From Clostridia bacterium (GTDB lineage: Bacteria > Bacillota > Clostridia > Christensenellales > CAG-917), in contig JAFWBH010000095.1 in NCBI GenBank assembly GCA_017507205.1, positions 1 to 29,390 of the forward strand: a DNA stretch of 29,390 nt, written 5' to 3'. Each line of letters begins with the position of its first letter. Within the stretch, counting starts at the first letter, position 1. A model generated the notes under the pieces. It made no database searches. It was not told the origin of the DNA and saw nothing but the letters and a program-made list of their open reading frames with translations. Shown piece after piece: positions 1-27,642 of this stretch. The position numbers and the translations under genes were made by a program.

Positions 1-3000
1 AAGGCCGTGGAAGTTAATCTTGCCAAGGCCAAGACCTGTTGCGTCAATGTAAAGTGAGTCTGCAAAGATCTTGTTTGCGCCGGCTGTTGCTGTCAGCTCA
101 TAGATGTTGCCTGACTTGGTGAGGCCTGTTGAGCCGAGATAGTAGATTGCAAGGAAGCTCTTGCCGGGAAGGATATCATCAATGGTGATGTCAATTGCAA
201 AGTCGCTATACAAGATGCCTGCAATACCCTTTGTGAGAAGTGCTGGCAGGTTGATGTCTGCTTCAACCGACATATTGATTGTGATGGGTCTTTCAGGGAG
301 TGTGATGACAAACTCTGTGTTCTTCAGAAGGTCAATCTCCTTGATGAAGCCAACAATGAGGTTTTCAAGCCAGCCAGTGAATGTTTCATTATAGCCAGCG
401 TCACCCTTCACAAGACCACTTGATGCAATTGACATTGCAATGTCAAGTGTAAGGCTGATTGACTCAATGCCAATTTGACCCGTTGTGATGTTGTATGCTT
501 CTGTGTAAGGAATGATGTATGCGCCGGTTGCACTACGCTCATAATGCTCTTCAACATACATGTATGCTCCATCGTCTGATGTGACATAGTCACCGTCCAC
601 GAGGTTGTAGCGTTGTCCTTCAAAGTCAGCTGTTGCCAATGCGTAATGCGCATCAATCTTGTTGTATCTTTCTCCAACAAACTTGTAGAGGCCACTTGCA
701 TCTTCAACATAGCTGTTGCCACTCTTTGTATATCTTGTTCCCTCATAGCTGACCAGCTCTTCTGCTGTAAGCTCTTGATATCTGTCACCAAGCTCCTTGT
801 GGAGAGCATTTGCGCTGTTGTAGGTGACATAAAGTGCTGATGTGCTGAAGCCAGCCTTCTTGTGCAAGCTGAATGCAAGATCCTTTGTGATTTCTGCTGA
901 TGCGTAGAAGCCTTCACTCATCTTGATGTTGAAGCTTGCAATATAAGGTCTTTCATCCACACCGTCAACAGGTGCATAACCATATGAATCAATCATGATT
1001 TCGCCGAGGTTGGGGATCAAGTTGCCAAGCTCCTTGCCTTGTTCCTCATAAATCTTGTTGATGATTGCATTGATTGTTGCTGTTGACAATGTAAGTGAGA
1101 AGTATTGAGGATGGATCATTGCTTGGAGGAATGCCCAATCATGAAGTGTGAGTCTTGATGCAATAGTGCTTGATGCTGCCATTGCCTCGCTGTCACCCTC
1201 TTCTCCGTTGCCAGCGATTCCACTGATGATGCCATCAATCATTTCACCGAGGCCAAGCTGTCCAAGATAAATCTTGCCAGTTTCGCCAAGGATTGCTGAT
1301 GCGTCAATGTAAACATTGTCGTTGGCGAGATAGATTGCAACGATAGGTTGCTCTGCAATTTCGCCATTCTTGTTGTATTGGAGCACTTCAAGAGCAAGCT
1401 CTGTTGCACCGAAGTTGCTCATGTCGATGTATGCACCCAGTCTGACTTGTGCTGAAGGATATTCCTCACTGCCCATATTGTCTGTAATGTTAAGACGGAG
1501 TGATGAGTCAGACATATCTGTTGAAGGTGACACAAGGCCAAAGACAAGGCTCAAAAGCTCACTCAAATCAATGACGTTGTCCTCTTCGCCAATCTTTGCA
1601 CTGCCGTAGTAGCTGAGGTCCATTGCCATTGTGAGATTGAGTGTTGACTTGGTGATGTCTGCGTAGTCAACAAACTTCTTGCCGTCAACGTCAAGATAAT
1701 CACCATCATCAGATGATGAAATATTCAATGAGTCGCCATTGACGTAGACACCAAGGTCATACATGTTGAAGTTGAGGCTCAAATCACCAATGAGGAGATA
1801 ATCACCTGCTGTTGTCACGTCATATGTTGCTCTGTCTGCAAGCACCTTGTTGCCTGAAAGCTTTTCATATGTATCAACGGGGAGATATCTGTTGCCATCT
1901 GCGCCATTTGATGCATATTTTGTGAGCTTTTCAACTGCGAGATCCTCTGCTGTGAGCTGGACGAAGCCACCTTCGCCGTCTGCGTTGAGGGCGAATGTGT
2001 TTGCATTCTTCTTGAGGTCGCCATCTGCGTCTGCAATATATTGACCATTTCTCAATGCGTAGCGTTGTCCTGTGAAGCCTGCCTCTGCTTGCTCAAATTC
2101 GCTGAACACCTTTTCAAAGGTCTTGCCGTCTGCGTTGAGGGTGTATCTGTCACCTGTCCAGACGCTGTTTGCGTATTCAACAAGTGCATATTTGTCACTT
2201 GACACCATAATATGTGTGCCGTTTTCGTCAACCACATATTCTTCGCCTTGGAGGCTGAACTTCACGCCGTTATATGCGTATTTGCCCACTTCCTCGAAGG
2301 CTTCGTAGCCGACCACAAAGCCCATATTGATGCCGATTGAGGGTGCGCCACCACCAAGGTTGATGATAAGACCACTTGTGTTTGCATCGTCTGTGATTTC
2401 AAGCTTGGGCAGATAGTCTGCACCGTCAAAGTCCTCTGCGATCATTCCAACAAGGTCAACAAGGAGATTATCCTTGAGTCCGACTGCGATGATGTCGTGT
2501 CCGAAGAGAACTTGACCGAGGATCATTTCAACAATGCCGAAGAGATCTGCAGGAATGATGCCGGTGTTGCTGTCTGTGCCTTCAACACCAAGAGTGTCAA
2601 GAGCAAGGGTGTCTGCACTTGCAAGTGCTTCGCCACCGACATTCTTGATGATAGGTGCAAGGTCAAGACCTTCAAATTTAACCTTGTTGAAGAAGTCGCC
2701 GAGGCCGACAACCTTGTTAAGCTCTTCAAGGTTCATATAGAGATTGAGTTTGCCGTCATTGTCAACATTCATCCAAATTTCAATGGTTGCGTTTTCATTG
2801 AAGTAGTTTGTTGTGCAGGTGACGTTGAGATAGAGCTCAAGTCCCTTGATTGCATCAATGATTTCACCACCATTCATGACATAGTCAAGGAGATTTTGGA
2901 CGTTGACCATTGCCTTCATATCAATGACAAGACCAATGTTCGCACCAAAGTTGCCGTTGTCCCAATCTGTTGATGCAAGAACAAAGTCAAAGTAATCATA

Positions 3001-6000
3001 AAGCTCTGTTGAGAGGAAGCTTGTCATCTGCTCTGTCCAGTTGATGACGTCAGAGAGCTTAAGCTCAACTGACATGGACATGTCAAGCTCAACAGTGTCA
3101 AGATCGCCAAGGAGCTTCATGATGTCAACATCTCCACCTGACAGCAATGCGCTGAGGTCAACACTCATGATTGTGTTGTAATCGGTGAAGTCGTCAACAA
3201 TCTTGTAGTAGGTCTTTGTATTGTCAAGTCCTGTTGCAATGCCGTTTGCATCGTATGCTACCTCTTGGAAGTTGCTGTCGCTGAGGTCTGCATACTTGGG
3301 TGCTTCCTCTGTGCCGTTGTAGACATAAAGTGCGCCACTTTGGTTCTTGTCCCATGCAGGCACATAGTATTTGGTTATAACAGGATAATCCTTGTATACA
3401 CTGATATATCTTGAATAGATTGAAGTTGCCTTGGGTGAAATTTCAATGTGGGTGAATTCTGCAGGATTTTCTGCAACCACTGCTTCACCACCAACAATGT
3501 TGTAGCGTCTTGCAGGCTCAACAAATTCCATTGTGCCACTGATTGTGATGTTGCTGACAACATAATCCTTGTCGGTGATGTTCCAGCAGTTCATCATATC
3601 AATGTAATGCTCCTTGCTGATGACAACATTGAACACTGAGTCGTTGTTGACCTTTGCAAGCTGTGCATCTGCTCTTGTGTAAACAAGGATGCCCTCTGCC
3701 ACTGCATCTTCAAATTCTGCTTCTGTGTAGATTTCAGTTGCCTTTACATAATACTTGCGATATGTATGGTGGACACCATTGCCAACCTCAACTGCATCCT
3801 CGGGGATAACCTTGCCGTCTGCTTTAAGCTCGCCAATTGCATCGCCGATTCTCACATATGCGTCCTCATACTCTGCTTCTCTGTTTTGGACAAAGTTGCC
3901 GTAGTAGAACACGTGGTTGTCTGCCACATCGCCGTCTGTTTCAATGCTACCCTTGTAGATTTCAATTCTCGTGTTGAAATCTTCCATTGTGCCAAAGTCA
4001 ATTGCTGAGCTGTTTTCATTGCCGTTGAACAATTGCATTTCAAGGCCCAATGTAAGAATGCCCTTTGTGCCGTCCTCGTTGTAGAGGTTGATTTCAACGC
4101 CTGTTGAATAGGGGTTGAGATTGACATTGACCTTTGCGTCAAAGTTGGGGAGCATTTCTCCAAGATCAACACCAAGAAGCTGCATAAGCACTTCAACAAA
4201 GCCCTTTGTGATTGCAAGTGAGAGCTTTCTTGTATAGATGTTGATGTAAACGCCTGCAAGTGCAGGATTTGCTGTCACGTCAACAAGACCCTCTGCATCT
4301 GCTGCTGCGCTTGCTTCACTGCCACCACCAAGTGCGATTTCACCTGAAAGAATGCCTGCTATAAGTGCTTCAATTGAGTATGCACTCATATTCACTGCAA
4401 ATCTTGCGCCTTCACCAAGCATCCATGAGAGGTCAAGGTAAAGTGCTGCATCGCCAGTGTCGATGTCGTGGTTGTAATAGATGCCAATCATATGGGTGAG
4501 AGTGCCGTCTGCATGGTTTGCACCATCGTTCTCTCTGCGCCAGACATCCATTGCAAGATCAAGGTCAAAGATGTTGAGGACGATTTCAGGCTTCCAGTCA
4601 ATACGATATGAGATGTTGATCTTCACTTCAAAGACCAATTCACCTGTGAAGCCTTCAAGGACTCTGATCATTGATTCATCAAGGTCACCGACAATGCCAC
4701 CGAGGACTGCGCCAAGTGATTCCTCAACGCCTGTTGAATAAAGGACATACTTGCCTTCATTGTCTTGGACATAGTTGCCTTGTTCAAGTCTATAACGGAG
4801 TGAAGGATCAATGTCTGCTTCGGTGATGTGGTTGCCAGTCATATTGACAAGGTCAATGTAGTCTGCAACAGTCATATAATCGTTGTAGCCTGTCACTGAA
4901 ATACTGCCACGAATTGTCAATGAAATGAAGAACATATCATCACTGTCAACATAGTTGATTGAGTCTGCATCCTCTCTGTAAAGGGCAATTCTGTTGAATC
5001 TTTCTGCAGTTGAGTCAATCTTGTTTGCATCCTCAAAGTCACCTGCTGTGAAATAGGTTGCAAGATATGTGCTGACAGGCATATATGATCTTGTCCAATC
5101 ATCGTATGCGTAAAGCTCTGTTTCTTCCTCTGTGAAGCGAACAAGCTTGCCGTCCTCATAGAGTGCCTTCACGTCTACATCTGAAAGTGTGCTTTCAAGG
5201 ACGAATGCGTTTGTCTTCCAGTTCCAGACATAATTGCGTGCGCCATCCTCAAGAACAAGCTCCATCTTGCCTGTTGCTCTTGAAATGACGTTTTCAACTG
5301 TTGCACGTTGATAGTATTGTGTGCCAGCAGGCTCTGTGCCGTCTGCACGGACATAGCTGTCACGATATTTGACTTGCTTGTAGAGCTTGCTTGCTGTGAT
5401 TTCTTCAAAGCGTGTAAGTCCCTTGTCTGTCAATTCAATGTGAATGTAGAATTCACGATCTGATGACACAAAGTCAACCATTTGACCACCAGCAAAGTCC
5501 ACTGTTGTGTAAACGCTTGTGACAGGCACGTGCTTGCCGTTGGCGTCAACAACATAAAGTGATGTGCTGTTGATTTCGTAGTATTCTCCTTGATAGTAAT
5601 AATAACGGAGATTGTCATAGTAGTTGCCGACGATTGCAATGCCGTCTGCTGTTGTGCCAACGGGGCTATCAAGTCCGACAATCCACTCATCCTTTGTATC
5701 CACACTGCCCACGTAGGTGTAAGCAACCTCAGGAACAATATAGTATCTGTCGCCACTGGGAGTATTTTCATCTGCAAGCTCGTAGTTGAATTCCTCAACT
5801 GAGATTTCAGGGAATCCAATGTTGACACCGATTTCATAATCCCAGAGATAGACCATAACTGACACGAGAGGCTTTCTTGCGTATGCAACAGGATTTGCAA
5901 CAAGCATATCTGCTTCGTCTACTGCTGTGAATGTGTAGAATTCATTGTCAAGTGATGAGTCGAAGCTGGCTGTCATATATCTGCCACCACCTGCATGGTA

Positions 6001-9000
6001 GTAAGCACCCTCATAATTGGTTGTGTCAGCCTTGGTGTAATACTTGAAGAATTCACCACTCTTTTCTGCTCTTTCCTTTTCAATTGCAGTTGCCTTTGAA
6101 AGCTCTTGATAGTAGTGACCGGTTGCTGTCAAGACCTTGATGTATGAGTCATATGCCTTGATTGAGTAATATTCGCCAGTGTATGCTTCAAGCTCTGCAT
6201 CTGTAAGGTCTGCCTTTGACATATAGACACCATTGACAAACACATATGTGCCATCAAGTGCGCCTTCTTCAAGGTAGAATCTCATGTCAGAGTTGCTTCC
6301 CTCTGCTGTCAATGCACTTTCATACTCATAGACTGCTCTGTCTGTGTTCAGTTGGAGATAAGGCTCCTTTGTAAAGTCGTTTTCGTTGAATTCAAGACCT
6401 GTGTCTGAATTTGCAAAGACCAGTGAAAGGATTTCATTTATAAAGTTGCTGTTGACAACGATTTGGACAAAGGTTGATGTCATTCTGACTCCAACGAGGA
6501 ATGCAGTCACATAGCCTGCAAGGTCATCGTTGAGGAGAGGAAGTGCGTTGTCAAGTGTATCGCCAATGCCAGCAAGTGAGTCGGTGATGCCGTCTGCTGC
6601 TTGTGCTTCGCTGTCGCCACCGAGGATGCCACCGAGAAGTCCACCAAGGACATCTTCAACCTCACCCTTGTGATCGTTAACGGTGCTACGGATTGAATCG
6701 CTGTTGACGTAGAAGCTGGGCATATTGAGGCCACTGAGGTCAAGGAAGAATCCACCTCTGACTCTCTTGTAATCGCCATTGGGGTTTGAATAGAAATACG
6801 TTGCATCGTATGCATAGCGAGTTCTGCCCACCTCATTGTGTTCAGGATCGTATGCAAATGTGCCTGTCAATGTATCGTAATAGTAGTTGCCATTTTCATT
6901 TTCAAAGTAATGGCTATAACGATATTCAGGTGCAACATAGTTGGCTGTGCCGTTGATTCTTTCATCTGCTGAAAGCTCTTCATAAGCACCACTTTCCATA
7001 TAGATACCCACGAGGGTGTGTGTATCTGAAATGACACGCTTACCGTTTGAATCAACAACAAGTCTGTCTGCTGTTGTTTGGACAATCAGTGATGCGTTGA
7101 AGAATGAGAGGACTTCACCAAGATTAATGGCGTCAAGATTTTGGACTGCGCCCATAATGACATTGATAAGCTCTTCAATGCCCATTTCTCCATTGATGTT
7201 GTCTGAAATGTCCTCATTGAAGCCATATTGACGCAGATAGTTGATGAGTGCACCGAGCTTGACCTCTACTGAGAGGACAACCTCAATCTTGCGTGCCACG
7301 TCACCTTCGGTGTCTGATGTTGCGCTGATGATTGCCTTCAAATCATCTGCATCCATTTGAGGGAAGAGCCATTCAAGGACTGCTGTCATATCAATGTCAC
7401 TGCCCTTGACAAATCTTGTTGTAAGATCAATTGATTCTGTGAGGACAAGTCTGTCAATTTCTGTGACCTCTGTGTATTCCTTCAAATCCTCTGCTGTAAG
7501 GTGATATTCATGCTCTGATGTGAACTTGACATCAACACCTCTCACTGCCACGAGGAGATTTACTGCTGTGTCATATTCATTCATATTGCCTGCGCCATCA
7601 TCTTCACGGTTGAAGTAGATTGTGCCAGATGCATCGTCCTCTGTTGCTTTTTCACGGACGTAGACTGTTGAAGGTCTTACTGCATCGGGTGCAAGTGCTG
7701 TGAAGGTGTTGCCCTTTTCAACATAGAGCTGTCTGTTCTTGTGATCGGGATTGCTTGCGCTGTAAAGGACAAAGTGATATGAGCCTTCAATTCCATTGTC
7801 AAGATCCTCATATGTGGGCTTTGCAACGGGGATATAACGGCTGCCTTCCATCATAAGCTTGACATTCATGTCAAGGCTCAATGAGTCATCAAATGCCATG
7901 TCAACCTGTGCTGATGCAAGAATCTTGTCTGTGATGTATTTGTCAAGGTCAAGACCTTCAACAAACATATCAATCAAGCCCTTGATGAGCTTGTTGCCGA
8001 TTGCGATTGTAAGCTGTCTTCTGCTGATGAGAAGGAGTGCGTCTGCATCTTCATCCTCAAGAGGTGATGCTGTCATTGCTTCACTTTCTGCATCTCCCTT
8101 GGGAAGCTCATTTTCTGTGTAGATGTCCTCATCAAGAAGTCCACCAAGTGTTTCTTCCATAAGGTTGGTGAGGATAGGTGTTGTGACGCTAATCTTGGGG
8201 ATGTTGAAGTAAGGTGCATCAAGGAAGAATTTGCCACCGAGGTAGTAAACACCAATCCAGAGATTGTCTGCACCTGTTTCTGAAATGTTGAAGATTTCAA
8301 TTGCAATTTCACTATTTGCAAGCTCTGCAAAGTCAGCAATCACTGACACATCCATACGGAAGTGTGCTGATGAATAGCCCTTTGAGGTTTCAGGCATTTC
8401 AAGGCTGATGCCTTGGATGTTGCCGAGAATGTTTGCAAAGATTGTGCCAAGGTCAAGCTCACCTTCGGTGATGCCAAGGTCAATTTCAATTGATGACTTG
8501 ATTGTGACGGCTGACTCATAGAAGTATGTGACAGGCACCTCTTCTGAGCCATTGATGACATAGTCGGGTGTCAAAGGCTTGCTTTGTCCACCAATCTTGA
8601 TGTCAAGGCCACCAATGCCAAAGCCAATTGTTGTTTGGTTGACGGTCAAATCAAGACCAAATGTGAAATCTTTGATTTCAGCGAATGACTTAATGTGACG
8701 ATAGTATTCGCCATTTGCATCAATGACGTAGCCTTGATAACGATCTGCAAAGCCTTGAACCTCAACAAATCTGCCACCACGACGGATGTAATAGGTTTCA
8801 TTTGCATCGTAATGATCTGCAACGTCCTCTGGTGCAACAACGCTGTAGCTGTCGCCGTTCTTGACGTAGAGAGGATATCTTTCTGCGTCAAAGTATTCGT
8901 AATTTGTGACACCATCTGTTTCGCCAACTGCAAGCTTTGCATATCTGCCATCGTAGCTGTTGTCGATCCATGTGATTTCATCGTAGTATGTATATCTCTC

Positions 9001-12000
9001 ATTCAAGGGGAGAATGAGGGTGTAGATATCCTTTTCTGCATTGACATCTTCAAGAAGGATTGTCTTGTGCTTATACACTGCATCTGCTCCGGTGCCTTCT
9101 GCAAATGTGACATCATACCTCACTGCGTCTTGAGGAACGATTGTTGCCTTTGTGATGTAGATATAATGATCAACACCACCAACTGTTTGCTTGAAGTAGT
9201 CGCCTTCGGCGTTTTCAACTGCTTCTGCCACTGCATATCTGGTGTCAACAATCTTGTCAAGATCAAGATTTTCAATTCTGTCGTAATCAAATCTGCCCAA
9301 ATCGCCTGCCAATGAAACCTCAAGGCTGTCGAAGATTTCTGTGATTGTGCCAAGGCTGGGTGCCAATGCTGAAATGATCACTGAAAGGAGTGTCTTGCTG
9401 ATGAGGATTTGACCTGCTGTGTCTGAATACATCAGTGCAAGCACTGCATCTCTTTCTTGGTCTGCCTCTGAGCTTGATGCCATTGCTTCGCCATTGCCCT
9501 CGGCTGATGTTGCGACAGTGCCGTCACCACCCATTGCAAGACTCATTGCAAGCTCGATGAAGTTGGGTATCTTTGTGTATGATGATGAGAGATCATAGAT
9601 GCCTGTGCCGTCAATGTAGAGGTCACCTCTGTAAAGGTAAATGCCACCCATTGCAACAAAGTCACCATTTTCATCTCTGACAGGTGTGCCCTTGTCATCT
9701 GTTTCAAGAAGCTCAAATGCAAATTCAACTGTGTCTAGGTCGCTTGTTGCAAGGAAGTCTGCAATCATTGCAGTTGTATCCTCGCCACCGGCAAGAATTC
9801 TGCCAATATTCAATGCGCCAAGGTCGCCTTGCAATGAAATGCGTGCTGCAACGCCGTCATGGAATGCACCGGTTGTCTTTGCCTTGATGACCATATCTGC
9901 AAGGTAGTTTTCAACAAGACCACCAAGCTCAAGGGTGTCAACATCTTCGCTGTCAAAGTTGATCATAATGTTCAAGCCAAGGCCAAGAGTCTTTGTGCTT
10001 TGGTTTTCATCCATAGGATACTTTTCAGGGTCGATGATTGACATCAAAAGGTCAATGTATGATGAGATATCTGTGAAATCGTTGATATCTTGAGGTGAAA
10101 GGACAGGATTTTCTTCTTCTGCCACCTCGAGAATGAGGCCAGCACCCATCTTCACTGTCATGCCAGTGCCGGACACTGTGCTGAGATTCATTGTGAGAGT
10201 GTGCTTGTTGTCCATTGTTGCATCGTTCAGCTTGATGAAGATGCCACTTTCGCTTTCATCAAGGTTGAACATGTCAAGACGGACCTCTTGTCCTGTGATG
10301 AGTGATGCGATGTCTGCAATAAGTGTTGAGTTGACAAGGACATCAATGCCGTCAAACTTGTTATACCAGAACTCGTCACCCTCTTCGAAGGGCTTGCCAC
10401 CCATGCCCATTGCAGTGCTTCTGATGATGATGCGCTTGATGAACTTGTTGAGATAGTCAACAATGCCAGGTGCTGTTGCTTCTTCCTCATCTGCAGCAGG
10501 CTGTGCCTCGCTGTCGCCACCCAATGCACCAAGTGCGTTGAGGAGTGAGAGAAGGTCAAATCTGACTTGAGGACCTGCAAAGTCGCCAAGGTCAAGGTAA
10601 AGGTTGCCATCTACAAGGTAGATGCCAAATGTCACTTCACTGTCGCCTTCGCCACTGTTGAAGGTCATTTCAACTGCCAATTCAAGTGCGCTGAGGATTG
10701 TTTCAACATCAAAGTTGAAGTTTTCAAATTCAAGCTTTGTAAGAAGATCGCTGACTCCAAGCTTTGCAAGGTCAACATTGCCCCAAACACGCAGAATCAT
10801 TGTTTCGTTGATGGGGTCGTTGAGATACATTTCAAGGCCAAGTCTGTCAATGAGTGCTCCAACAAGATTCCTCACAATACCTTCGTCAAGGCCAGAGATG
10901 AGGTCTTGCACTGCGTCAAGGCTGAATATACTTTCAATGATGTCGCTATACACAAGAGGATTCTTGATATACAAGCCGTTGGGGTCTTGTGCATATCTGC
11001 CGTCTGATTCACGGAGTGAATATCTTTCATCATCGCCATAGAGCTTTGCAGTTGCTTCATCAACAAGGATGTATGTTTCATCAAAGTTGAATTGCATTTC
11101 AACTTCCATATTGAATGCAACATTTTGGTTGGATGCAAAATTGTTGAATCTGTCAACACCATTGTCGCCACCAACATATTTGTAATATGTTGTGCCATTT
11201 TCAAGAGTGCCGGTGAAACGGACAAATGCACCATCTTCCTTGATGAAAATCATATCATTTTCTGTGTTGATATCGCCAAATTCCGACTCATCAACAACAG
11301 TGTAGTTCAATTCGTTTTGATAGTGATAAATTCCGTCATCAAGTCTTGCTGACACAGAGTCAAGATGCTCTGCTGCAATTCTGGGATTACGGACATAGAT
11401 TGATGCGTTGAACACGTCACTTGCAAAGTCAAATGTAAGTGATGTTGTATCAAAATCAACCTCAAAGTTAAGCTCGATGCCAAGATCGGGGAGCTTCTTC
11501 ACTGACTCGCTGATGTCAATGTCGCCAAGGATTGATTCACCCTCATCCTTTGACATTGCAAGGTCAATGACAAATGCAAGAATGCCAACAAGTGTTTGTT
11601 GTGTAATTGAGAGAGCAAGCTTGTCGCTGGCAAGTGCAAGGACAACCTCAAGTGCTTCTTCACTTGCTGTCTTGACCTCTTCGCTTGCTGCAGATGCTTC
11701 GCTATCCTCTTCTGTTGAGCCAAAAATTGATGCGATTGTGTCAATAAGCCACTTTGAAATGCCTGTATTCTCAACAACAAAGTCCTTTTCTGACAAAATG
11801 CCCATATCAACATAGAGGCTTCTGCCACGGAGATAAATGCCAAGGACGGTGCTGTCTGCTGTTGCATTTGAGCCGGCAACAAGGTTCTTGATTTCAATCA
11901 TCAATTCTGTTTCTTCAGGATTGTCAAGTGAAAGGTTGCCTGCAATGAGAAGCTCAACGTCAAGAAGCATATCTTTTTCAATTTCAACGCCAATTGCAAG

Positions 12001-15000
12001 TGCAAAGTCTGCGATGAATGCCGACACCAAGTCATTGATGGGCAATTCCTTGTTTTCAAAGTCTTGCGTATCGCAGACCTCAACCTTCAATTCCACTGCT
12101 GCTTCAAATGCAAGGGTTGTAAGGTTGGTTGCGCTGATGTATTTGTTTGCTTCAATATTTTCACTGACAACATCACTTTCAACAGTGTGCTTGTCTGAGA
12201 AGCCCACCATAAAGTTGGTCATTGAAACGCCAACGGTGAAGGGGTCAATTGCCACTGCAAAGTCAAGCTGATATGTGTCCATATTGAACTTGACAAAGCT
12301 CTTGTCGGGGTTGATTGCAAGGAAGTTTTCGTTGAGATTTTGTGCAACGTATGTTCCGTTTGCGCTTTCAACATAGTTGACAGAGCCGTCCTCATTTTCA
12401 ACACGGATATATTTTGTGCCTGTGTATGATTCAAGTGCTTCGCCTTCAAGCTCTACGTAGCACATATCGGGAGCAACAAGCTGCAACACTGTTGCAATGA
12501 GTCCACTTGCAAAGTAGAGTGTGAGGCTTTCTGAGTTGACATTGAGGCCGTAAAGCACATTGCCAATGAGGTCTGTGATTGAGCCAACAACATCTGATGC
12601 ACCCTCGTTGGTGCCTTCGGTTTCGTCTGCTGATGCTTGTGCTTCACCTTCTCCACCGGTCACTCCTGAAAGGAGTGCTGCAAGGCTGAGGTCAGCAATC
12701 ATAAGATGAACGTCCTCAACAGGTGCAACATTGACATCAATGTAGAGTGTGCTTGTTGCTGCCACTGTGGGAGCATTTACATCATCACAGAGGAGTGTAA
12801 TTGCAAAGATTCTTGCTTCGGGGATATCTTTGACCTGCTCGTAAACGCCGTCAAACAGCTCAATTGCGATATCTGAGTGTGCAAGGATATAGTTGATGTC
12901 AAGCATATCTTCGGGGTTGAAGCGAAGCATTGCTGCAATCTTGACACCAAGATATTTTTGAATAGTTGAATCAATGTCAAATGCAAGAAGGATTTGTTCA
13001 AGGAAGCCCTTTACACCTTCATTGCTTGTGCCAAGAAGGAGTGATACCCATTGTCCAACAGGCCATGAATCAACATCGTTGGTTGCTTCAAGGTCAATTG
13101 TAAGGTTCAATTCAACATAAACCTGTTCAAGAGCAATGGCGAGCTTGCCTTCCTCGTCAATGTCAAGAAGGCTGATAAGCGCATAGCTATCCTCTCTGCC
13201 ATCGAAGACAAAGTCTTCGTGTGCGTTGTCTGCTGTCTTGCCATAAGGAATGACATCAATGATTTCGTGAGTGATTTGAAGCTCGGGTCTGTAAATGTCG
13301 AGAGTTGCACTGCCTGTGGGTTGCTTGTTTTGGTCCATGCCGACAATCTTTGTTGTCACAAGAGGTTGCTCGTCCATGCCTTCAACCTGCTCTGCCCAGG
13401 AAATTTCAAGTGCTGCTTCAATGATTGCAATGTTGATGCCTGCAACGTCCCAGAGTGCTTCCACGATGCCTTGGAATATTTCAAGTCTGATGCTTTCATT
13501 GCCAATCATCATTGCAAGACCAAGAGCATAGTCAAATTTGCTGACGTCATAAGGTGTGTCGATGGTGTAATCATCGCCTGCTGACATTGCTTCAGCATTG
13601 TCAGGATTGATTTTTACATTGGAATCTTCACCAAGAATGAGGTCAAGGATGATTGCATAAAGGTCAATTTCAACGGCAATCTTTTCAACACCAAGCTGTG
13701 ATGCGTCAACATAGAGCTTGCCGTCAATGTAATAAAGACCAAGGATGAATTTTTCAACGGAATTCTTGTTCTCAATGGCTTCAATGAGGATTTGAGTTTC
13801 ATTTCCGTTGGTGTAAATCTCTTCTGCACCAAGTAGCCAGTCAAGGACGGGAGCAAGGTCAAGAGATGCTTGGACTCTCAAATCGTAGCCGAGGTTGATT
13901 TCTTCCTCAAAGATGACTGCGCCACCATTGCCCATAGGTGTATTGCCTTGGTTGAGCTGTGCGTCAAGAGCCATTTCAAGTCCGAGGAAAATGTTGGGGG
14001 TTTCAAAAATATTGACAAAGTCAATGTCTGTGGGGACATCAAGATTTACATCCTCGGGGACGCTGTTGATGCCCAGCTTGAGATTGCCCATATTGACATC
14101 AAGGTCAAGCTTGTCGTCAAAGTTGAGGTAAACCTCAACACCAAGCTCTGTCAAATCAATGCCGTCTGCAAATGTAATGCGAATGCCACCATCAACTGCT
14201 GAATCAAGAAGACCAATGTCAAGTCTTGTGCCAGCAAGCTTATAGTAGGTTTCGCTTGCGTCAAATGCGCCTGTTGCTTGCTTCAATACGCCGTTTTCGT
14301 CTCTGACGAACACGTTTTCGGTGAAGGTGCCGGCTTCATAGCTGGCAAGCTCCTCTGCACTGAGTGCAACATAGCCGTCCTCTTTGGCTTCAAAGCCGAT
14401 GAGGTCAATGAGTGTTTGAATAAGTCCACTTGCAAGATAGACGTTGATTGATGCGCCAGAAACATCAACACCACCAATGAGACCTGCAACAAGTGCAATG
14501 ATTTGATTCATTGAATCGTTGCTGACTTCACCCTCTTCGCCTTCGCCATCTGCACTCATAGCTTCGCTATCGCCACCGATGACGCCAAAGTGTGCAAGAA
14601 GCTCCTTGGCAGGAATTGAAATGTCAATTCCGTCAATGATGCTGTCTGCTGTATGGAGATAAAGCATTCCGTCGTTGAGCCAAATTTCAATTGACTTTTC
14701 ATCGCTTCCCTTTTCAGCAAGTGACATATGCACTGATGCTTCAAGGAGGCCAGCAATGTCAAATTGACCGTCCTTGAGGAGCTTTGTAAGGTCGATGTTT
14801 GCTTCGAGTGAAAGCACTGCGCCTGTTTCAATTTGCTCAACGAAGTCAACAATTGCTTGCAAGAATATTGCACGTGATGAAGCAATGTCAATCTTGGTCA
14901 ATTCCTCTTGAATTACAACCAAATCAACATCCACTGACATACCGACGTAAACGTTGTTCAGTGCGCCAAGGATTGTGTCAAGGTTGAGGCCACCTGAAAG

Positions 15001-17584: not shown

Positions 17585-18442
17585 TCACTCAAATTTTTCT
17601 GGGGTTTTGACAATCTCAAATTGCTCTTCGACAACCCCTTCTTCACACCCCGAATTTTCAGCTCCGAGCCACTCAACTTCAAGGATATGATTGTTGGTGT
17701 AGGACTCAAAATTGCATTGAAAATCGGGATATCCTTCACCTTGATCAATTGCAGTTTTGCAAGTGATTTTCAAAGTCTTGTCCCCGAGGGTATAATAAGC
17801 TCTACCCTTCTTTGAAGACAGCCCCAATTTGAGAGGACGAGAGTTGTCAGTCTGTCTTATTGTCAGCACTCCGTCATCCAACGAATATCTTTCATCACGG
17901 CAATCATCATAAGGCCAGAAGACAAGATTTTGCACAGGATTAAGGTCGTCCTTCTTTTCATTGAGTGGCACGCGAAGCACCCCGTTTTTGCACATCACAG
18001 ACAAAGCCCAAACGTGATGTTTTTCATCACAACACTTGGTTTTTACTGCGTTTTTGACATTTAAACTGCCGTTTTGGTCAATTCCGACAGTGAGAGTGTA
18101 GTCAAATTTTTTGGACACACGACAGACAAATTTACCACTGAAATCATCAGTCATCTCATATTCCACTGGATAGTTGTCGGGGGTGTATGAATAGAGATCC
18201 TCAGGTGATTTCCAAACCCTGTGGCCACCATACAAGCACCACCTTTCACCCTCTTTATACTCCCTGTCAAAGAATTCACCTTCCTTTGTCACATTGCGTT
18301 CAATATCCTCGCAAAAGAAGTTGAAATCATCTGTGCCATAGTAGATAATTCTGGGTCCAATATCAATGGTGATCATTGCCCTTGCGCCTCCTCTTTCAAG
18401 GACAACGCATCTGCCAAAATTTTTGTAATTTTCAATCCTCAT
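17585..18442 (-). CDS. Conserved hypothetical protein, probable galactose-mutarotase-like beta-sandwich (DUF4380-like), 285 aa
   Basis: Motifs IGPRII and YGGHRVWKSPE..YxPDNxP, which I recognise from this family; AGGTG RBS; no signal peptide. Confidence 0.6.
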   Translation of the reverse strand: MRIENYKNFGRCVVLERGGARAMITIDIGPRIIYYGTDDFNFFCEDIERNVTKEGEFFDREYKEGERWCLYGGHRVWKSPEDLYSYTPDNYPVEYEMTDDFSGKFVCRVSKKFDYTLTVGIDQNGSLNVKNAVKTKCCDEKHHVWALSVMCKNGVLRVPLNEKKDDLNPVQNLVFWPYDDCRDERYSLDDGVLTIRQTDNSRPLKLGLSSKKGRAYYTLGDKTLKITCKTAIDQGEGYPDFQCNFESYTNNHILEVEWLGAENSGCEEGVVEEQFEIVKTPEKFE

Positions 18443-18627
18443 TTTTTCACCTAAGCAGTAAAATTTTGCCCCAAAATTTAGGGCAAATTTTCACATTAAT
18501 TTTTGCGTGAATTTTTCTATATTTTTCAGCTGAAAATCCACCTGCTTTTTCAATAATTTTTTATGCAAACAAGGGAGTGCTTTCTCTCGCAAAAACCCAC
18601 AATTTTGACACGCCTTTCAGTCAGGGC

Positions 18628-20163
18628 TTACTTTTTTCTGCCCTTTTGTGCGTCAAGAGCATTCCTCACTGCCTTTCTGTCGCCAAGGTCAAGCATATCA
18701 ATCAAAAATTTCACTGCCTGACCAAATGCCTTGAATATATTTGGGTTGGCTTTTGTAGGATGCTCATATCCAACCTCATATGCTTCAAGTATGCCAAGAA
18801 CGTTATATAGCCTTTCAACAAAATCCTTATAGCACTTGTCCTCTTTTCTTGTCCAGCCTGTTTCTGCAAAGGCTATGGCACGAGGGAATGCTTGGTGGTG
18901 AAGCTTGTCCTCATCTGCCACCCATTCAGTCCAAAGAGGCGACTCTATGCCAAGTATGTTTTCTTCACCCACTCCATCAAAGCAAGACATAGGCTCAAAC
19001 CTGTATGCACGCTTCAAGGGATTGATGCCGTGAGGATAGTCAAGATAGCAAGGGAAGTTTTTTGACACAAACATTTTTCTGCCATTTTTCAATGCTTCTC
19101 GCACTGCCCTTGCTCCCCTTCCGTCTGACCAATATTGACAGACAGCACTGTCATCAAGCATATCTGAATACAATGCCTCATTCCACACAATCGGTATTTT
19201 ATCATATCTTTTCAGTATGTTTATCACTCGATTTGTGAAATATCCTTGCAGTTGCTCGTAATTGTCAAAGCCTTCTCTTTCCACAACTGCCCTGCATTTT
19301 TCGCACTTCTGCCACTGTGTTTTTGGCACTTCGTCACCACCAATGTGGAAGTATTTTGAGGGGAACATTTCAGTGATTTCACCGAGGAGCTTATCAATGA
19401 TTTCGTAATTTTCTTCATTGCCAGCACAAAGAATTCTGTTGTCTATTCCATACCTTTCTGCAAGGTCAAACTGCTCTCCTGTGCAACCTGTTTCAGGTCT
19501 TGCCACAAGCATAAACAGCGTATGTCCTGGCAGGTCAATTTCTGGCACGACATTAACAAATCTTTCTCCTGCATAGTCAACAATTTCCTTTACGTCTGCC
19601 TTTGAAAGATAGCCACCAACAGGAATTCCATCACCCCTTGTGCTTCTTCTTGTGTTTGCCTTTTCATTCAGCTCTGGAAACACCTCACTTTCAAGCCTAT
19701 ATCCTTGATTGTCGCTGATATGAAGGTGCAGATTGTTTATTTTGACCAAGGACAATATGTCAATGAGCTTCAAAATGGCATTTTTGTCAAAGAAATGTCT
19801 GACAATATCCAGCATAAAGCTTCGATATTCAAAGCGAGGCCTGTCTTTTATGTGGCAGTTCTTTATGGTTGCAACACCCTCAAAATAGCCGTCAAAGATC
19901 AATTGCTTCAAGGTCATTGCCCCATGGAAAAGCCCCTCATTTGTCCTTGCCACCACTCTTATGTCACCATTTATGACTATTTCATAGTCATATTCTGTGG
20001 GGGCAAGCTGAAAAATCGCCTTGTTGTCATCACCCCTCTCATAGTCAAGGAAATTCAGCTCCTTGACAATGACATCAATGGGGCTGACAATCTCAGTTGA
20101 ATTGCTGAAAAGGGTTTCACCCTCTAAAACTGATATGCTCAATGGCTTTGGAACGATATTCAT
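18628..20163 (-). CDS. Beta-N-acetylhexosaminidase, glycoside hydrolase family 20, probably cytoplasmic, 511 aa
   Basis: PRFEYRSFMLDIVRHFF, LHLHISDNQGYR, VPEIDLPGH and the catalytic HIGGDE motif; no signal peptide. Confidence 0.93.
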   Translation of the reverse strand: MNIVPKPLSISVLEGETLFSNSTEIVSPIDVIVKELNFLDYERGDDNKAIFQLAPTEYDYEIVINGDIRVVARTNEGLFHGAMTLKQLIFDGYFEGVATIKNCHIKDRPRFEYRSFMLDIVRHFFDKNAILKLIDILSLVKINNLHLHISDNQGYRLESEVFPELNEKANTRRSTRGDGIPVGGYLSKADVKEIVDYAGERFVNVVPEIDLPGHTLFMLVARPETGCTGEQFDLAERYGIDNRILCAGNEENYEIIDKLLGEITEMFPSKYFHIGGDEVPKTQWQKCEKCRAVVEREGFDNYEQLQGYFTNRVINILKRYDKIPIVWNEALYSDMLDDSAVCQYWSDGRGARAVREALKNGRKMFVSKNFPCYLDYPHGINPLKRAYRFEPMSCFDGVGEENILGIESPLWTEWVADEDKLHHQAFPRAIAFAETGWTRKEDKCYKDFVERLYNVLGILEAYEVGYEHPTKANPNIFKAFGQAVKFLIDMLDLGDRKAVRNALDAQKGRKK

Positions 20164-20180
20164 AATTTCCTCCTGCTTTC

Positions 20181-20209
20181 ATTGTAGCAAAGCCACCTCG
20201 GATAGTCAA
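20181..20209 (-). promoter_or_regulatory. sigmaA promoter of the GH20 gene
   Basis: TTGACT (20204-20209), 17 nt, extended -10 TGc-TACAAT (20181-20186), just upstream of AGGAGG. Confidence 0.75.
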
Positions 20210-20290
20210 TACAGCTTTCGTTTTTTGGTGCAAATTGACAGATTCTGTCCCTTTTCATCCTTTTTCGCAAATCAACGATTTGCGCCTGCG

Positions 20291-20319
20291 TTGACACATC
20301 CACAGTTTTGTGTTATTCT
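20291..20319 (+). promoter_or_regulatory. sigmaA promoter of the membrane protein/HGSNAT-like operon
   Basis: TTGACA (20291-20296), 17 nt, extended -10 TGt-TATTCT (20314-20319). Confidence 0.7.
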
Positions 20320-20328
20320 ATGTTTATT

Positions 20329-20829
20329 ATGGGAAGCACAGGTGGATGCATCGCTGGTGGAACCTTTTCGGCATTTTTGTCGTCAACAATCAAGGTTCTA
20401 GGCTACATTGGAGAATTTATTGGACGGCTCATCTACTATTTTGGGCTGTATTTCCCCATTCTCTATGCAATTTATGGCGTTATCCTGTATTTTGCCTTTG
20501 ATTTCAACCCTTTCATCCAAAATGTAGACGGCAAGCTGTTTATGTTTGGCTTTGCCCTCTCCCTTGTTGCTATGGTCATAAAGGCCGTGAAGAACCTCAT
20601 CGTCAAGCCCTGCAAGAAGTATTTTGGCAGATCAAAGGTGATTGAATATGGCAAGGAACAAAAGCTGTCGAGAAACGCACCAGAAGCCCCCACAATCTAC
20701 AAAAGCAAGGTCAACCCCGGTGTCATCGTCTATGAATATTCCAATCGCTACGATTTGTATGAGGAATATGAGGACGGCCTGCACCTTGTTGGCACAGAAT
20801 TTAAGAAACGCAGGAACAAACGATGGTAG
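20329..20829 (+). CDS. Hypothetical membrane protein (about 2 TM helices plus a soluble C-terminal domain), about 166 aa
   Basis: Hydrophobic segments LIYYFGLYFPILYAIYGVILYFAF and LFMFGFALSLVAMVI. ATG 20329 is preferred over the track's 20308 start because 20308 lies inside the promoter. Overlaps the next gene by 7 nt. Confidence 0.7.
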   Translation: MGSTGGCIAGGTFSAFLSSTIKVLGYIGEFIGRLIYYFGLYFPILYAIYGVILYFAFDFNPFIQNVDGKLFMFGFALSLVAMVIKAVKNLIVKPCKKYFGRSKVIEYGKEQKLSRNAPEAPTIYKSKVNPGVIVYEYSNRYDLYEEYEDGLHLVGTEFKKRRNKRW

Positions 20830-21938
20830 ATTTCACCAATGAAAACACCAATATTTCTGAAAATGAGGTGAAAAGAGAAGAAAATTCTTCTCTTCTTCCC
20901 CAGTTAGAAAACATCGCAGCCAACGTTGGCGATGAGGTTGAAATCAACCTTGAAAACAGTGAATCGCCCTCTGAAAACGGTGAAAACCTTGACCAATCAG
21001 CAGAAAACATCGAGGAAAGCGCAAAAAAAGACAACAAATTTGTTGCCTTCTTCAAGAAAACGTTTGCTCGGAAATCTACTGCTGGCAGAATTTGGGAAAT
21101 AGATTTCCTTCGTGGTCTTTGCGTATTCTTGATGCTCTTTGACCACTTTGCAATTATGATTGCAACAGAGTTTGCATACGCTTGGTTTGGCGATGTGACA
21201 ACGCTTGAAGCCAATCCAGAGCTTGGAGCCAAATTTGTTGCACTTCTTCGTTGGTATGTCAACACAACCAATGAGCCCAACGGGCTTCGTGCCATAGGAC
21301 ACCCTGTTGTGCTTTTCGTTTTCTTTGCAATTTCTGGCATATCCTGCTCATTTTCAAGATCCAACCTCAAAAGAGGCTCCATCCTTGCAGTTGTAAGCTT
21401 GGTGTATTCCCTTGTCACCTACATTCTGAGCATAACAATGGACAGCTCACTTCTTGTCACCTTTGGTGTCCTTCATTTCTACGCAGTGTGCATTCTTGGT
21501 TGGGCAATCATCTGCCTCATTGTGAAGGACAATAAAATCGCCAAGATGATTGTCAGTGGCTTCATCGTGATTTTGGTGGCAGTGCTATATTTCTGCTACA
21601 AGGCCCCAGCCTCAACACCTCAGTGGCTCTTCTGGATTTGGCCAAGAAAGCACTTTGATGGCACTCCAAGTCAATTCTATATGCAAGGCATGGTTTCCCC
21701 TGGGGATTTGTTCACCCTTGTGCCATACGCTTCATTCTTCTTTGCAGGCACATTCCTGCAACCAATCCTTTACTCAAAGCGCAGAAGCCTGCTTCCAAAA
21801 TTGGATCGTGGCTGGCATCGTCCAATCACCTTCCTTGGCAGACACGCCATTGGCATATATCTCATTCACATTGTGGCAACAGCAGTCATACTCTGCCTTG
21901 TCAGCTATATTTTCTTTGGCACCTGGGGATTGTTCTAG
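20823..21938 (+). CDS. DUF1624 / heparan-alpha-glucosaminide N-acetyltransferase (HGSNAT) catalytic-domain-like membrane protein with an ~85 aa acidic N-terminal extension
   Basis: GRIWEIDFLRGLCVFLMLFDH, FFAISGISCSFSRSNLKRG, FGVLHF and FLGRHAIGIYLIH motifs; multiple TM helices. Confidence 0.8.
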   Translation: MVDFTNENTNISENEVKREENSSLLPQLENIAANVGDEVEINLENSESPSENGENLDQSAENIEESAKKDNKFVAFFKKTFARKSTAGRIWEIDFLRGLCVFLMLFDHFAIMIATEFAYAWFGDVTTLEANPELGAKFVALLRWYVNTTNEPNGLRAIGHPVVLFVFFAISGISCSFSRSNLKRGSILAVVSLVYSLVTYILSITMDSSLLVTFGVLHFYAVCILGWAIICLIVKDNKIAKMIVSGFIVILVAVLYFCYKAPASTPQWLFWIWPRKHFDGTPSQFYMQGMVSPGDLFTLVPYASFFFAGTFLQPILYSKRRSLLPKLDRGWHRPITFLGRHAIGIYLIHIVATAVILCLVSYIFFGTWGLF

Positions 21939-21987
21939 GCAACATAAAACCCTCAAAAAAACAAAATCAATGCCAGTATGGCAAAAC

Positions 21988-22015
21988 AAAAAGCGATGCA
22001 AAAGCATCGCTTTTT
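21988..22015. terminator. Bidirectional intrinsic terminator
   Basis: AAAAAGCGATGC-AAAA-GCATCGCTTTTT perfect inverted repeat between convergent genes. Confidence 0.85.
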
Positions 22016-22068
22016 TACTGCATTCTTTATCTATCGGTCATAGACCTATAACATATATTTTTGCATAT

Positions 22069-22094
22069 TAAAAGGACAAGAACGCTTGCCCTTT
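22069..22094 (-). terminator. Probable intrinsic terminator of the GH127-like/bPH_2 operon
   Basis: Minus strand AAGGGCAAG-CGTT-CTTGTCCTT followed by TT, with one G-U pair. Confidence 0.5.
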
Positions 22095-22129
22095 TCTTTT
22101 TGTGTCAAGGCTATTGAAGTCTTGTTGAC

Positions 22130-22702
22130 TTAATATTGATTTTTCTTTTGACCATGAGGTGCAAGAACAAGCTGAACCTTCTTGTTGCCACCTGAATGCT
22201 CATATCTATTCTTTTGTCTTGTGATGCTTTGAGCAAATCTCAAAGGCACGCAGATGCCCTTGACTACAAGGGGATCCATTGCGTCAACGATGACGATGAC
22301 CTTGCCGTAGCAGAAGATTCTTTCAAAGAGGTTTTGTGTCACCTTGACTTCCTTGATTTGATCAAGGGGCATTTGAACGTCAAGACGTCTGAATATGCCG
22401 ACACGTGCAGCAAATTTTCTGTCTGTGACCACTGCCTCTCTCTGCCACCTTGAAATGCCTTCGAGAAGGCAAAGAAGCACAACAAGACCACCACAGCCAG
22501 CAGCAACGTATGCCAAAATTTCATCGGTCAGGATGTCCTTGCCAATGAGGCCGTTGATGTCTGCCTTGTAGATGTAAAGCAGTGCAACGATTGCGCCAAG
22601 AATTGCAGCAATCAGCAGTTCACGCAAGAAAAACACATAGGTAAACCTTGCTTTTGAGACAACTCTTTCACTTTTGCGATATGTTCTTTCAAGTGCTTTC
22701 AT
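22130..22702 (-). CDS. Bacterial PH domain (bPH_2, YdbS/DUF304-like) membrane protein, 190 aa
   Basis: Two TM helices, then VVTDRKFAARVGIFRRLDVQMPLDQIKEVKVTQNLFERIFCYGKVIV; TAAGGA RBS; 43 nt downstream of the GH127-like gene. Confidence 0.8.
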   Translation of the reverse strand: MKALERTYRKSERVVSKARFTYVFFLRELLIAAILGAIVALLYIYKADINGLIGKDILTDEILAYVAAGCGGLVVLLCLLEGISRWQREAVVTDRKFAARVGIFRRLDVQMPLDQIKEVKVTQNLFERIFCYGKVIVIVDAMDPLVVKGICVPLRFAQSITRQKNRYEHSGGNKKVQLVLAPHGQKKNQY

Positions 22703-22745
22703 GTCTATTCACGTCCTTATTCGGTTTATTTTTTTTGTTGGTTTG

Positions 22746-24701: not shown

Positions 24702-24764
24702 AATGTCCTTTCTGCGTGCAAGCGTATTATGCGAAACGGGTGCGCACGCTTGCGATACAAAGAT

Positions 24765-24793
24765 AATTTACCACATAAGTTTGACAAATGCAA
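24765..24793 (-). promoter_or_regulatory. sigmaA promoter of the GH127-like gene
   Basis: TTGCAT (24788-24793), 17 nt, extended -10 TGg-TAAATT (24765-24770). Confidence 0.6.
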
Positions 24794-24809
24794 GAAAAAC
24801 ACATAAAAT
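24781..24809 (+). promoter_or_regulatory. sigmaA promoter of apgM, overlapping the divergent promoter
   Basis: TTGACA (24781-24786), 17 nt, TAAAAT (24804-24809). Confidence 0.75.
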
Positions 24810-24891
24810 TTGATTGATGAAGGCGTGATTTTCCGTTTTTTCGTCAATTCAGCTTGCTTTTTTAAAGCAAAAAGGACATTTTTACTCGGTT

Positions 24892-26109: not shown

Positions 26110-26414
26110 GTGACAATTACAGCTACAACAACAATTCATCAAACAATGAAAATTCAGCAGAAAAATTGATTGTTCCTATTTGGGAATTATTTTTTGACGA
26201 CAAAAAAGAAGGAGAAATAAGCGATATGGTATTAGAATCATTACTGCACAAAAAAATTAAGGTTTGGAGTGTTTTGGCAATGACAGTCAATGGTGTTCGT
26301 GGAACATATAAGGGTCAAGTGGGTGTCCTCACCTCTTATGACGATGAGTTTATTGTCCTTGACGATCAATACATATTGAGCAGAAAATTCATTTTCAGAA
26401 TTGAGCAAGCCTAA
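26106..26414 (+). CDS. Small hypothetical protein with a probable C-terminal Sm/LSm (Hfq-like) fold, 102 aa
   Basis: ATGA overlap with the apgM stop; C-terminal TVNGV...GVLTSYDDEFIVLD..YILSRKFIFRIE resembles the Sm1/Sm2 strand pattern. Confidence 0.6.
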   Translation: MSDNYSYNNNSSNNENSAEKLIVPIWELFFDDKKEGEISDMVLESLLHKKIKVWSVLAMTVNGVRGTYKGQVGVLTSYDDEFIVLDDQYILSRKFIFRIEQA

Positions 26415-26435
26415 AATTCAACAATACAAAGCAAC

Positions 26436-26467
26436 AAAAAACACGCAATCTTGCGTGTTTTTATTTT
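26436..26467 (+). terminator. Intrinsic terminator of the apgM operon
   Basis: AAAAACACGCAA-TC-TTGCGTGTTTTT followed by ATTTT. Confidence 0.85.
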
Positions 26468-26488
26468 CCTTTCCCGAAATTCCTTCAT

Positions 26489-26516
26489 AAAAAAAGCTCC
26501 GCCTAAAAGACGGAGC
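26489..26516 (-). terminator. Intrinsic terminator of the candidate sRNA
   Basis: Minus strand GCTCCG-TCTTTTAGG-CGGAGC followed by T7. Confidence 0.8.
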
Positions 26517-26588
26517 ATTTTCCACGATTAAATTTTCTTAATCGGACTACGGTCATATCCCTGCCGCATCAGACACAACTATGTTGCT
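26489..26588 (-). ncRNA. Candidate ~100-nt small RNA, family not recognised
   Basis: Own near-consensus promoter and terminator, three predicted hairpins before the terminator, no RBS-led ORF. Confidence 0.55.
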
Positions 26589-26593
26589 TCTAT

Positions 26594-26622
26594 AGTATAT
26601 GCAATGCTCCTGCGTTTGTCAA
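26594..26622 (-). promoter_or_regulatory. sigmaA promoter of the candidate sRNA
   Basis: TTGACA (26617-26622), 17 nt, TATACT (26594-26599). Confidence 0.8.
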
Positions 26623-26714
26623 TGGGTTTTGTCAAAAAAATCTTTACTTTTTTGTAATTTCTTTATACTTTTCTATTTTTGCACGATTTTCTTTTTTGGT
26701 TTGCTTACTGCATG

Positions 26715-27620: not shown

Positions 27621-27642
27621 AGCCTGCCTCCTATATAAATCT

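Follow-up and report, generated by a model that had tools for sequence, protein, structure and literature searches.

The window analysed here is the whole of contig JAFWBH010000095.1 (29,390 bp), which comes from a fragmented assembly of ~1.0 Mb attributed to a Clostridia bacterium. A giant open reading frame (ORF) on this contig encodes P0001, a protein of 5,701 amino acids (aa) made up of ~14 divergent core repeats of ~310 aa each, and several of these repeats carry copies of a Tyr-rich unit of 24 to 40 residues, here called type 1, with the consensus [YF]xGxRYx(5-10)[YF]VxDxxGxYxxV (alignment A2). The type-1 unit is real, its copies resembling each other beyond chance, and it constitutes an undescribed sequence family that matches no known one. 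It can be read as a self-folding mini-module, specific to the P0001 family, that has been duplicated into permissive loops of the core repeat, where it would form a Tyr-rich contact surface with a binding role; we put the probability of this reading at roughly one half. The positions of all features are collected in Table 1, where residues of P0001 are numbered as aa = (17103 - nt)/3 + 1.

The type-1 unit

The profile of the unit spans 24 positions; it was built from nine copies picked by pattern and was iterated over 12 representatives of the family. It converges on 33 units with independent E values (i-E) of ≤1e-3, including 24 outside P0001. P0001 itself contains nine copies at i-E of ≤1e-5 and a tenth at 0.016. 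None of 20 shuffled sequences, which preserved the composition within 60-aa windows, gave a match to the profile, and the best of them reached 4.7 bits, as compared to 14 to 31 bits for the real units. Scores obtained after leaving each unit out of the profile in turn range from 6 to 28 bits against a shuffle maximum of ≤4.1 bits, and the pattern [RK][YF]x(4-12)[YF][VIAY]x[DNSE]xxGx[YFHL] occurs 9 times in P0001 versus a mean of 0.06 (maximum, 2) in 1,000 local-composition shuffles. Self-BLAST of the whole protein returned the identity match only, and BLAST of the protein in chunks was used in its stead. The latter pairs units from separate repeats at 37 to 46% identity and leaves the flanking core unaligned (e.g., residues 909 to 957 and 5440 to 5490 are 37% identical). 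The Tyr-rich module had been noticed in an initial annotation made from the DNA letters alone, and every example peptide given there is found at its assigned place in the minus-strand ORF.

Four of the copies (at aa 911, 1549, 2011, and 5442) bear an N-terminal extension, Y-x-x-L-[ST]-A-E-E-L-x-x-Y, that corresponds to a strand and a one-turn helix (LTAEEL). We refer to these longer copies as extended modules. Degenerate half-units are also seen in the early repeats, namely FKDENGGYTGEK (aa 619 to 631, in the region of window position 15249) and VRDENGDFVA (aa 2475 to 2484, in the region of position 9618), and one early half-unit sits immediately before a core hairpin. These half-units may be relics of decayed units.

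A second type of unit, ending in TYYK, had also been proposed. Its pattern is indeed enriched in P0001 (8 occurrences versus ~1 expected from shuffles), but the profile of its six scattered copies gains nothing beyond its own seeds and their orthologues in P0002, the closest homologue of P0001, and its leave-one-out scores are 2.5 to 22 bits, as compared to shuffle maxima of 1 to 7 bits. As a family, the TYYK type is weakly supported.

Core repeats and insertion sites

The core repeats were delineated with an iterated profile seeded with aa 1815 to 2200, which has 14 matches in P0001 and 12 to 15 matches in each full-length homologue. Each core repeat is closed by a GxYxxxxxLYxD hairpin, and several are followed by an acidic linker of the G-D-S-E-A type. 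The family is defined by ~14 to 15 divergent repeats with this hairpin, by the acidic linker, and by a long C-terminal region, and P0001 fits this definition, with the C-terminal region lying outside the window and being taken from the homologues. The AlphaFold2 (AF2) model of aa 1800 to 2200 is of mixed α/β structure, with a mean predicted local distance difference test score (pLDDT) of 72.9. It matches only generic curved β-sheets (VIA Z of ~9 to barrel walls, Foldseek E of ≥0.07, and template modeling [TM] score of ≤0.17 in AFDB), and no LolA-like match is listed in these core-repeat fold searches. A word-index search yielded 59 homologues of P0001, which range in length from 4,150 to 7,990 aa. 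P0002 is 59% identical to P0001, and the remaining ones are 23 to 30% identical.

In repeats 4, 6, 7, 9, and 14, a unit is found at common positions of the repeat profile (~199 to 246), just ahead of the conserved C-terminal half. Inserts are also located at profile position 260, at position 291, where the unit of repeat 11 lies, and in the loop of the core hairpin (repeats 10 and 14); repeats 3 and 5 are without a clear unit. The inserts are discrete aromatic-rich additions at recurrent sites, before the C-terminal half and in the core hairpin loop, in agreement with the initial annotation, which had them at specific loops. The insert regions listed there coincide with Tyr-rich islands, defined as stretches with at least 6 Tyr residues per 50 aa. 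The total amount of extra material is ~1,400 aa when repeat lengths above a 320-aa baseline are summed, which is close to the roughly 1,500 aa estimated earlier, but only ~1,040 aa when judged by Tyr density. For these ~1,000 to 1,400 otherwise featureless residues per protein, the A2 profile provides an annotation handle, and it marks the places where the core repeat tolerates insertions.

One insert, in repeat 10, splits the core hairpin exactly, as had been claimed for an insert of ~75 aa: the arrangement is LVGIYMESG-(76 aa)-RGGFFLDLSGL, with GIYMESG to RGGFFLD covering aa 3366 to 3455. Two branches of the family (the P0003 group and P0060) have this hairpin unsplit. P0056, P0057, and P0059 carry a longer version of the insert, and in P0035, P0055, and P0058 its last unit is retained. 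The unit also represents a clean natural case of a mini-module that resides in a β-hairpin loop without loss of the host repeat.

Distribution along the protein and conservation

The Tyr content of P0001 is 1.6 to 3.9% in repeats 1 to 8 and 6 to 9% in the later repeats. The gradient toward the C terminus that was initially described holds insofar as the membrane-proximal repeats have few inserts and the later ones have many, but the increase is not monotonic. In full-length homologues, the expansion forms a hump at repeats 9 to 12 (400 to 870 aa each, with 6 to 10% Tyr); repeats 13 to 15 fall back to ~310 to 365 aa and ~4% Tyr, and beyond the repeats there is a region of 2,000 to 2,900 aa with at least one Big_4 Ig-like domain. 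The gradient in P0001 is only an appearance: the ORF is truncated, and the window ends inside the repeat array. Extra inserts in repeats 12 to 14 are retained in P0001 and in its close relatives, and P0060 has ~14 repeats with almost no expansion.

Homologues at 25 to 30% identity carry units at orthologous positions, and the module of repeat 7 scores 48 bits in P0003 and 51 bits in P0056. At the DNA level, direct repeats within the ORF are limited to short matches of 60 to 89% identity, which argues against recent duplication. Identity to P0002 is 58.1% in the Tyr-rich islands and 62.2% in the remainder. Over 3,040 aligned residues there is just one large indel, an insertion in P0002 of exactly one unit (34 aa); neither P0001 nor the 75%-identical P0061 has it. 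The 24-aa unit within this insertion shares 15 of its 24 positions with the unit that lies ~115 aa upstream (manual count). Among strain contigs that are ~99% identical to the window and come from four studies, there are substitutions and no indel anywhere in the ORF, so that the comparison of insert content among strains suggested by the initial annotation reveals no indel variation between near-identical strains. Small contig joints that could have passed for strain indels were rejected, as they are supported by a single contig per run, with sides of 27 to 65 nt and 85% likeness, and were taken to derive from other organisms or paralogous repeats. The orthologous positions, the identity of the islands, the 34-aa indel, and the indel-free strains together indicate that the units are old, that purifying selection acts on them as it does on the core, that whole units have been gained or lost on occasion, and that they are not strain-variable. 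The initial annotation had proposed glycan- or surface-binding fingers or a shield; conservation at the level of the core and invariance among near-identical strains argue against a shield of a variable kind.

Predicted structure and possible role

In the AF2 model of its repeat-7 copy, the extended module starts with a short strand and a one-turn helix, which are followed by three further short strands, with pLDDT values of 89 to 96 in 10-residue blocks over aa 2010 to 2049. The model of the repeat-14 insert (aa 5436 to 5552) is an all-β meander with one short helix (mean pLDDT of 74.9, with blocks of 92 to 94 for its residues 11 to 40). The unit is thus confidently predicted to form β-hairpins. 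Searches with the insert model produced no usable match, be it in the PDB with Foldseek (best E of 0.2), in the VIA wide fold search (best Z of 3.3), in the AFDB clusters (best E of 0.26), or in the ESM Atlas (best TM score of 0.41); the ESM Atlas feature search gave none either. In form, the unit is analogous to WW-domain-like β-meanders, which also have ~25 to 40 aa, three short antiparallel strands, and cross-strand aromatic residues. However, there is no match to the Pfam WW domain in ten insert segments, and the signature residues for proline ligands are missing.

Under the mini-module reading, the core of the unit would be a three-stranded antiparallel β-meander that comprises an RY strand, a G turn, a YV strand, a DxxG turn, and a Y..V strand and is often preceded by the strand and the one-turn helix (LTAEEL). 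The module would sit in a few permissive loops of the ~310-aa core repeat, in a giant surface protein that is likely anchored at its N terminus, and intragenic duplication may have multiplied it in those loops. The N terminus of P0001 contains a signal or lipoprotein-like peptide followed by a Pro-rich linker. The expected result is a set of protruding Tyr/Asp/Gly/Arg-rich β-ribbon excursions, which would be concentrated in repeats 9 to 12 and, in the lineage of P0001, also in repeats 13 and 14. The conserved features of the unit (an Arg-Tyr strand, a Gly turn, and an aromatic pair flanking the DxxG turn) are those that a small hairpin requires for folding, and we therefore read it as a copied scaffold in which they would act as fold determinants. 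The excursions would then give the middle and distal stretches of the fibre a Tyr-rich contact surface that faces outward. That they are exposed is suggested by the anchored surface protein, by their location in mid-to-distal repeats, and by the occurrence of a similar motif in the variable region of a flagellin (see below). The most likely function of such a surface would be to bind a cell-surface ligand, a polysaccharide or other. Bacteria are known to build binding surfaces from short aromatic hairpin repeats, the YD and choline-binding repeats among them. Given their small size, the pieces of 117 and 34 aa lend themselves to expression and binding tests.

Several observations weigh against this interpretation. 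Both models were derived from shallow multiple sequence alignments, with mean pLDDT values of 73 to 75, and the TYYK-type insert of repeat 7 is modelled at pLDDT of <50. The canonical units cover only ~300 aa of the ~1,000 to 1,400 extra residues. The conserved positions can be explained by folding alone and say nothing about a ligand. The irregular spacing of the units argues against a regular solenoid of the choline-binding kind, in which ligand sites are created between the repeats. Finally, the only carbohydrate-binding module to appear was CBM_5_12, at an E value of 7.7, and no fold match to such modules was found in the PDB, the AFDB clusters, or the ESM Atlas, a result that is nevertheless compatible with binding.

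The inserts could instead be purely architectural, β-ribbon braces or staples that pack on neighbouring repeats or on further protein copies, making the fibre stiffer or thicker in its middle, with no external ligand. We consider this possible, if doubtful. It would account for conserved residues that are determinants of fold and packing, for conservation equal to that of the core along with invariance among strains, for the family-wide retention of the hump at repeats 9 to 12, and for the insert within the core hairpin itself; moreover, some flagellin outer domains work via subunit-subunit contacts, according to an excerpt of PMC8931119. The nearly unexpanded array of P0060, however, indicates that the inserts are dispensable for the core array. 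In addition, hairpins rich in Tyr, Asp, Asn, and Arg are generally common at carbohydrate-binding sites.

It is clearly unlikely that the unit belonged to the core repeat from the outset, with later decay in most repeats and secondary duplication in a few. The shared profile positions in five of the repeats and the presence of the repeat-7 copy in all family branches tested are what such an origin would produce, but units also occur elsewhere (in the hairpin loop of repeat 10 and at profile position 291 of repeat 11), and their presence or absence differs clearly between branches. Furthermore, units are 37% identical across repeats, whereas the flanking cores are 10 to 24% identical to repeat 7. 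An ancestral origin fits with later spread of the unit and is therefore only a partial competitor of the mini-module reading.

Relation to known families and occurrence in other proteins

The unit had been called novel, and the profile and fold searches bear this out, as they map it to no described repeat family in Pfam, NCBIfam, PDB sequences, fold collections, or 1.84 billion proteins. Ten insert segments searched against Pfam at E of ≤10 gave nothing above the cutoff. Against PDB sequences, the best match of the A2 profile (E of 0.027) is to designed propeller blades and is confined to profile positions 12 to 26. Among the 1.84 billion representative proteins, just 29 match the A2 profile at E of ≤1e-3. 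The literature that was searched contains no description of the family or the motif. Full-unit matches come from members or fragments of the family, from a few unannotated proteins (P0066, P0074, P0076, P0083, P0069, and P0071), and from one flagellin. Partial matches in PD40 propeller and collagen-repeat proteins cover only half a unit and were judged spurious. PHROGs searches of six unit-bearing proteins from outside the family revealed nothing above the cutoff, and the unannotated proteins named here belong to no Pfam or PHROG family. P0066 (500 aa), P0074 (473 aa), P0076 (1,312 aa), and P0083 (4,424 aa) carry 1 to 3 good full-length units each, yet BLAST shows no similarity of these four to the giant family.

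The flagellin, P0075 (669 aa), has three tandem repeats of ~100 aa (residues ~277 to 500) between Flagellin_N and Flagellin_C. Each repeat includes T-K-Y-x-L-x-x-G-S-Y-V-x-x-A-x-G-T-F-V-x-A-x-D-G-x-Y-V-x-V, which is the same two-turn motif as in the unit of the giant protein. However, the host protein is different, the tandem arrangement is regular, and the match is weak (E of 7.8e-5 for the whole protein among the 1.84 billion, with 10 bits for a single full unit). In flagellins, this variable middle part is surface-exposed. The likeness may be due to convergence, or a portable mini-module of common ancestry may be present in both proteins. A broader proposal, which we regard as unlikely, is that the unit is a new kind of portable, autonomously folding β-meander of 24 to 40 aa that spreads by duplication into loops, even into the middle of a core hairpin, is shared with unrelated surface proteins (the flagellin outer domain and several unannotated proteins), and serves gut Clostridia as a building block for Tyr-lined ligand-binding protrusions on giant surface fibres.

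YD/RHS repeats (PF05593, TIGR01643) resemble the unit in being β-hairpins of ~20 aa with a high content of Tyr, Asp, Gly, and Arg. They too occur in bacterial proteins of very large size that are secreted or located at the surface, and G-x-R-Y-S-Y-D can be read in several copies of the unit, e.g., in P0056 and P0057. In contrast to these repeats, which form a long, regular, shell-building array, the units are single or occur in irregular clusters of 2 to 5 in the loops of another repeat, and YD repeats have no counterpart to the YVxDxxGxY half of the unit or to the preceding helix. Choline- and cell wall-binding repeats (CW_binding_1, PF01473; Choline_bind_2, PF19085) are likewise aromatic hairpins of ~20 aa with an aromatic-x-x-D-x-x-G turn, found in surface proteins of Firmicutes. 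Should the units have a ligand at all, a Tyr-lined site would be a plausible parallel. However, the unit lacks the GW signature and apparently also the regular tandem solenoid, the model of aa 5436 to 5552 being a β-meander with no significant match to such structures.

It is very improbable that the unit is a highly divergent version of either of these repeats. GxRYxYD is similar to the YD signature and YxxDxxGxY to the WYYxDxxGxM motif, Choline_bind_2 matches the inserts weakly (E of 0.076), and the choline-binding protein 3hia has an E value of 2.2 with the unit profile. Against this, neither RHS_repeat/YD nor CW_binding_1 was found at E of ≤10 in the ten insert segments or at E of ≤1 in the whole protein (Pfam and NCBIfam). 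The Choline_bind_2 score of 13.7 bits is half of the gathering cutoff of 27, with no stretches passing. Regular tandem arrays are absent, and the fold searches stay at Z of ≤3.3, with an Rhs chain at 2.7, within noise; choline-binding structures do not rise above noise either, the endolysin of phage Cp-1 (1h09) being at rank 48 of the insert fold search, with an E of 2.6. Finally, a mere by-product of Tyr/Gly/Asp-rich composition, with no common ancestry or structure, might be suspected for the weak TYYK type and for the extra residues outside the unit profile, which are the majority, but for the type-1 unit it is contradicted by the local-composition shuffles, which never reproduce it, and by independent matches in distant homologues.

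Full-length protein and genomic context

Searches with the whole of P0001 reveal no Pfam or NCBIfam family in listings down to E of ≤1. P0002 extends ~2,870 aa beyond the last residue of P0001, and a ~99%-identical strain contig (run X1, record 1) continues for 3,908 nt beyond window position 1; since this contig passes the start of the window, the end of the P0001 gene is an assembly cut and not a biological one. The full-length protein probably has ~8,500 aa. The gene call of P0002 (5,937 aa) begins within repeat 9, at the equivalent of P0001 aa ~2660; the call is probably truncated at its N terminus, the gene itself being longer. P0002 and P0056 both have a Big_4 Ig-like domain in their C-terminal part.

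One of the homologues comes from a Clostridia metagenome-assembled genome (MAG), as does a 69%-identical locus. Two loci with relatives of the giant protein (L002 and L003, 38% identical) are from MAGs labelled "uncultured Bacteroidaceae," whereas other named relatives are Clostridia; this label could be due to mis-binning, mislabelling, or a wider distribution of the family. DNA nearly identical to the window is found in animal gut and faeces metagenomes from at least 10 studies, and an expression look-up listed no RNA data set as containing the stretch. In these animal-gut metagenomes there thus recurs a family of surface proteins of 6,000 to 8,000 aa that is wholly unannotated.

Table 1. 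Features of P0001 and of its contig
Feature	Position (nt)	Strand	Residues of P0001	Remarks
Giant ORF P0001	1..17103	minus		Stop-free; 3' end at contig edge
Core repeat ends			168, 519, 840, 1150, 1479, 1786, 2192, 2514, 2981, 3373 (plus insert), 4239, ~4800, 5284, 5701
Extended module, repeat 4	14278..14373	minus	911-942	Strand, helix LSAEEL, degenerate unit; 31 bits
Extended module, repeat 6	12343..12459	minus	1549-1587	YVELEGEALESY + YTGTKY...YVESANGTYV; 40.5 bits
Extended module, repeat 7	10960..11073	minus	2011-2048	Orthologous site conserved in all family branches tested
Type-1 unit, repeat 9	8695..8766	minus	2780-2803	Within Tyr-rich island aa 2668-2811
76-aa hairpin-splitting insert, repeat 10	6760..6987	minus	3373-3448	Ends in a 24-aa type-1 unit (nt 6760-6831)
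Type-1 unit, repeat 11	4738..4797	minus	4103-4122	Orthologous unit in P0055
Two type-1 units, repeat 13	2005..2274	minus	4944-4967, 5010-5033	GDRY half-unit between them
Multi-unit insert, repeat 14	448..798	minus	5436-5552	Extended module 5442-5476, second unit 5494-5517, additional G-x-Y hairpins
Span with 12 of 13 Tyr-rich islands	442..9102	minus		Thirteenth island at nt 10951-11067
Main Tyr-rich islands	8671-9102, 6694-7026, 5893-6342, 5473-5859, 3199-3486, 442-828
Six scattered TYYK-type units (weakly supported)	Span 3190..14319: 14224-14319, 11164-11259, 8770-8877, 7639-7734, 5293-5364, 3190-3270	minus	929-960, 1949-1980, 2743-2778, 3124-3155, 3914-3937, 4612-4638
GH20 hexosaminidase	18628-20163			Neighbour gene
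HGSNAT-like acyltransferase	20823-21938			Neighbour gene
Weakly GH127-like protein	22746-24701			Neighbour gene

The giant ORF is adjoined by glycan-related genes in the rest of the window (positions 17585 to 29390), listed in Table 1. The same region also encodes an independent phosphoglycerate mutase and an esterase.

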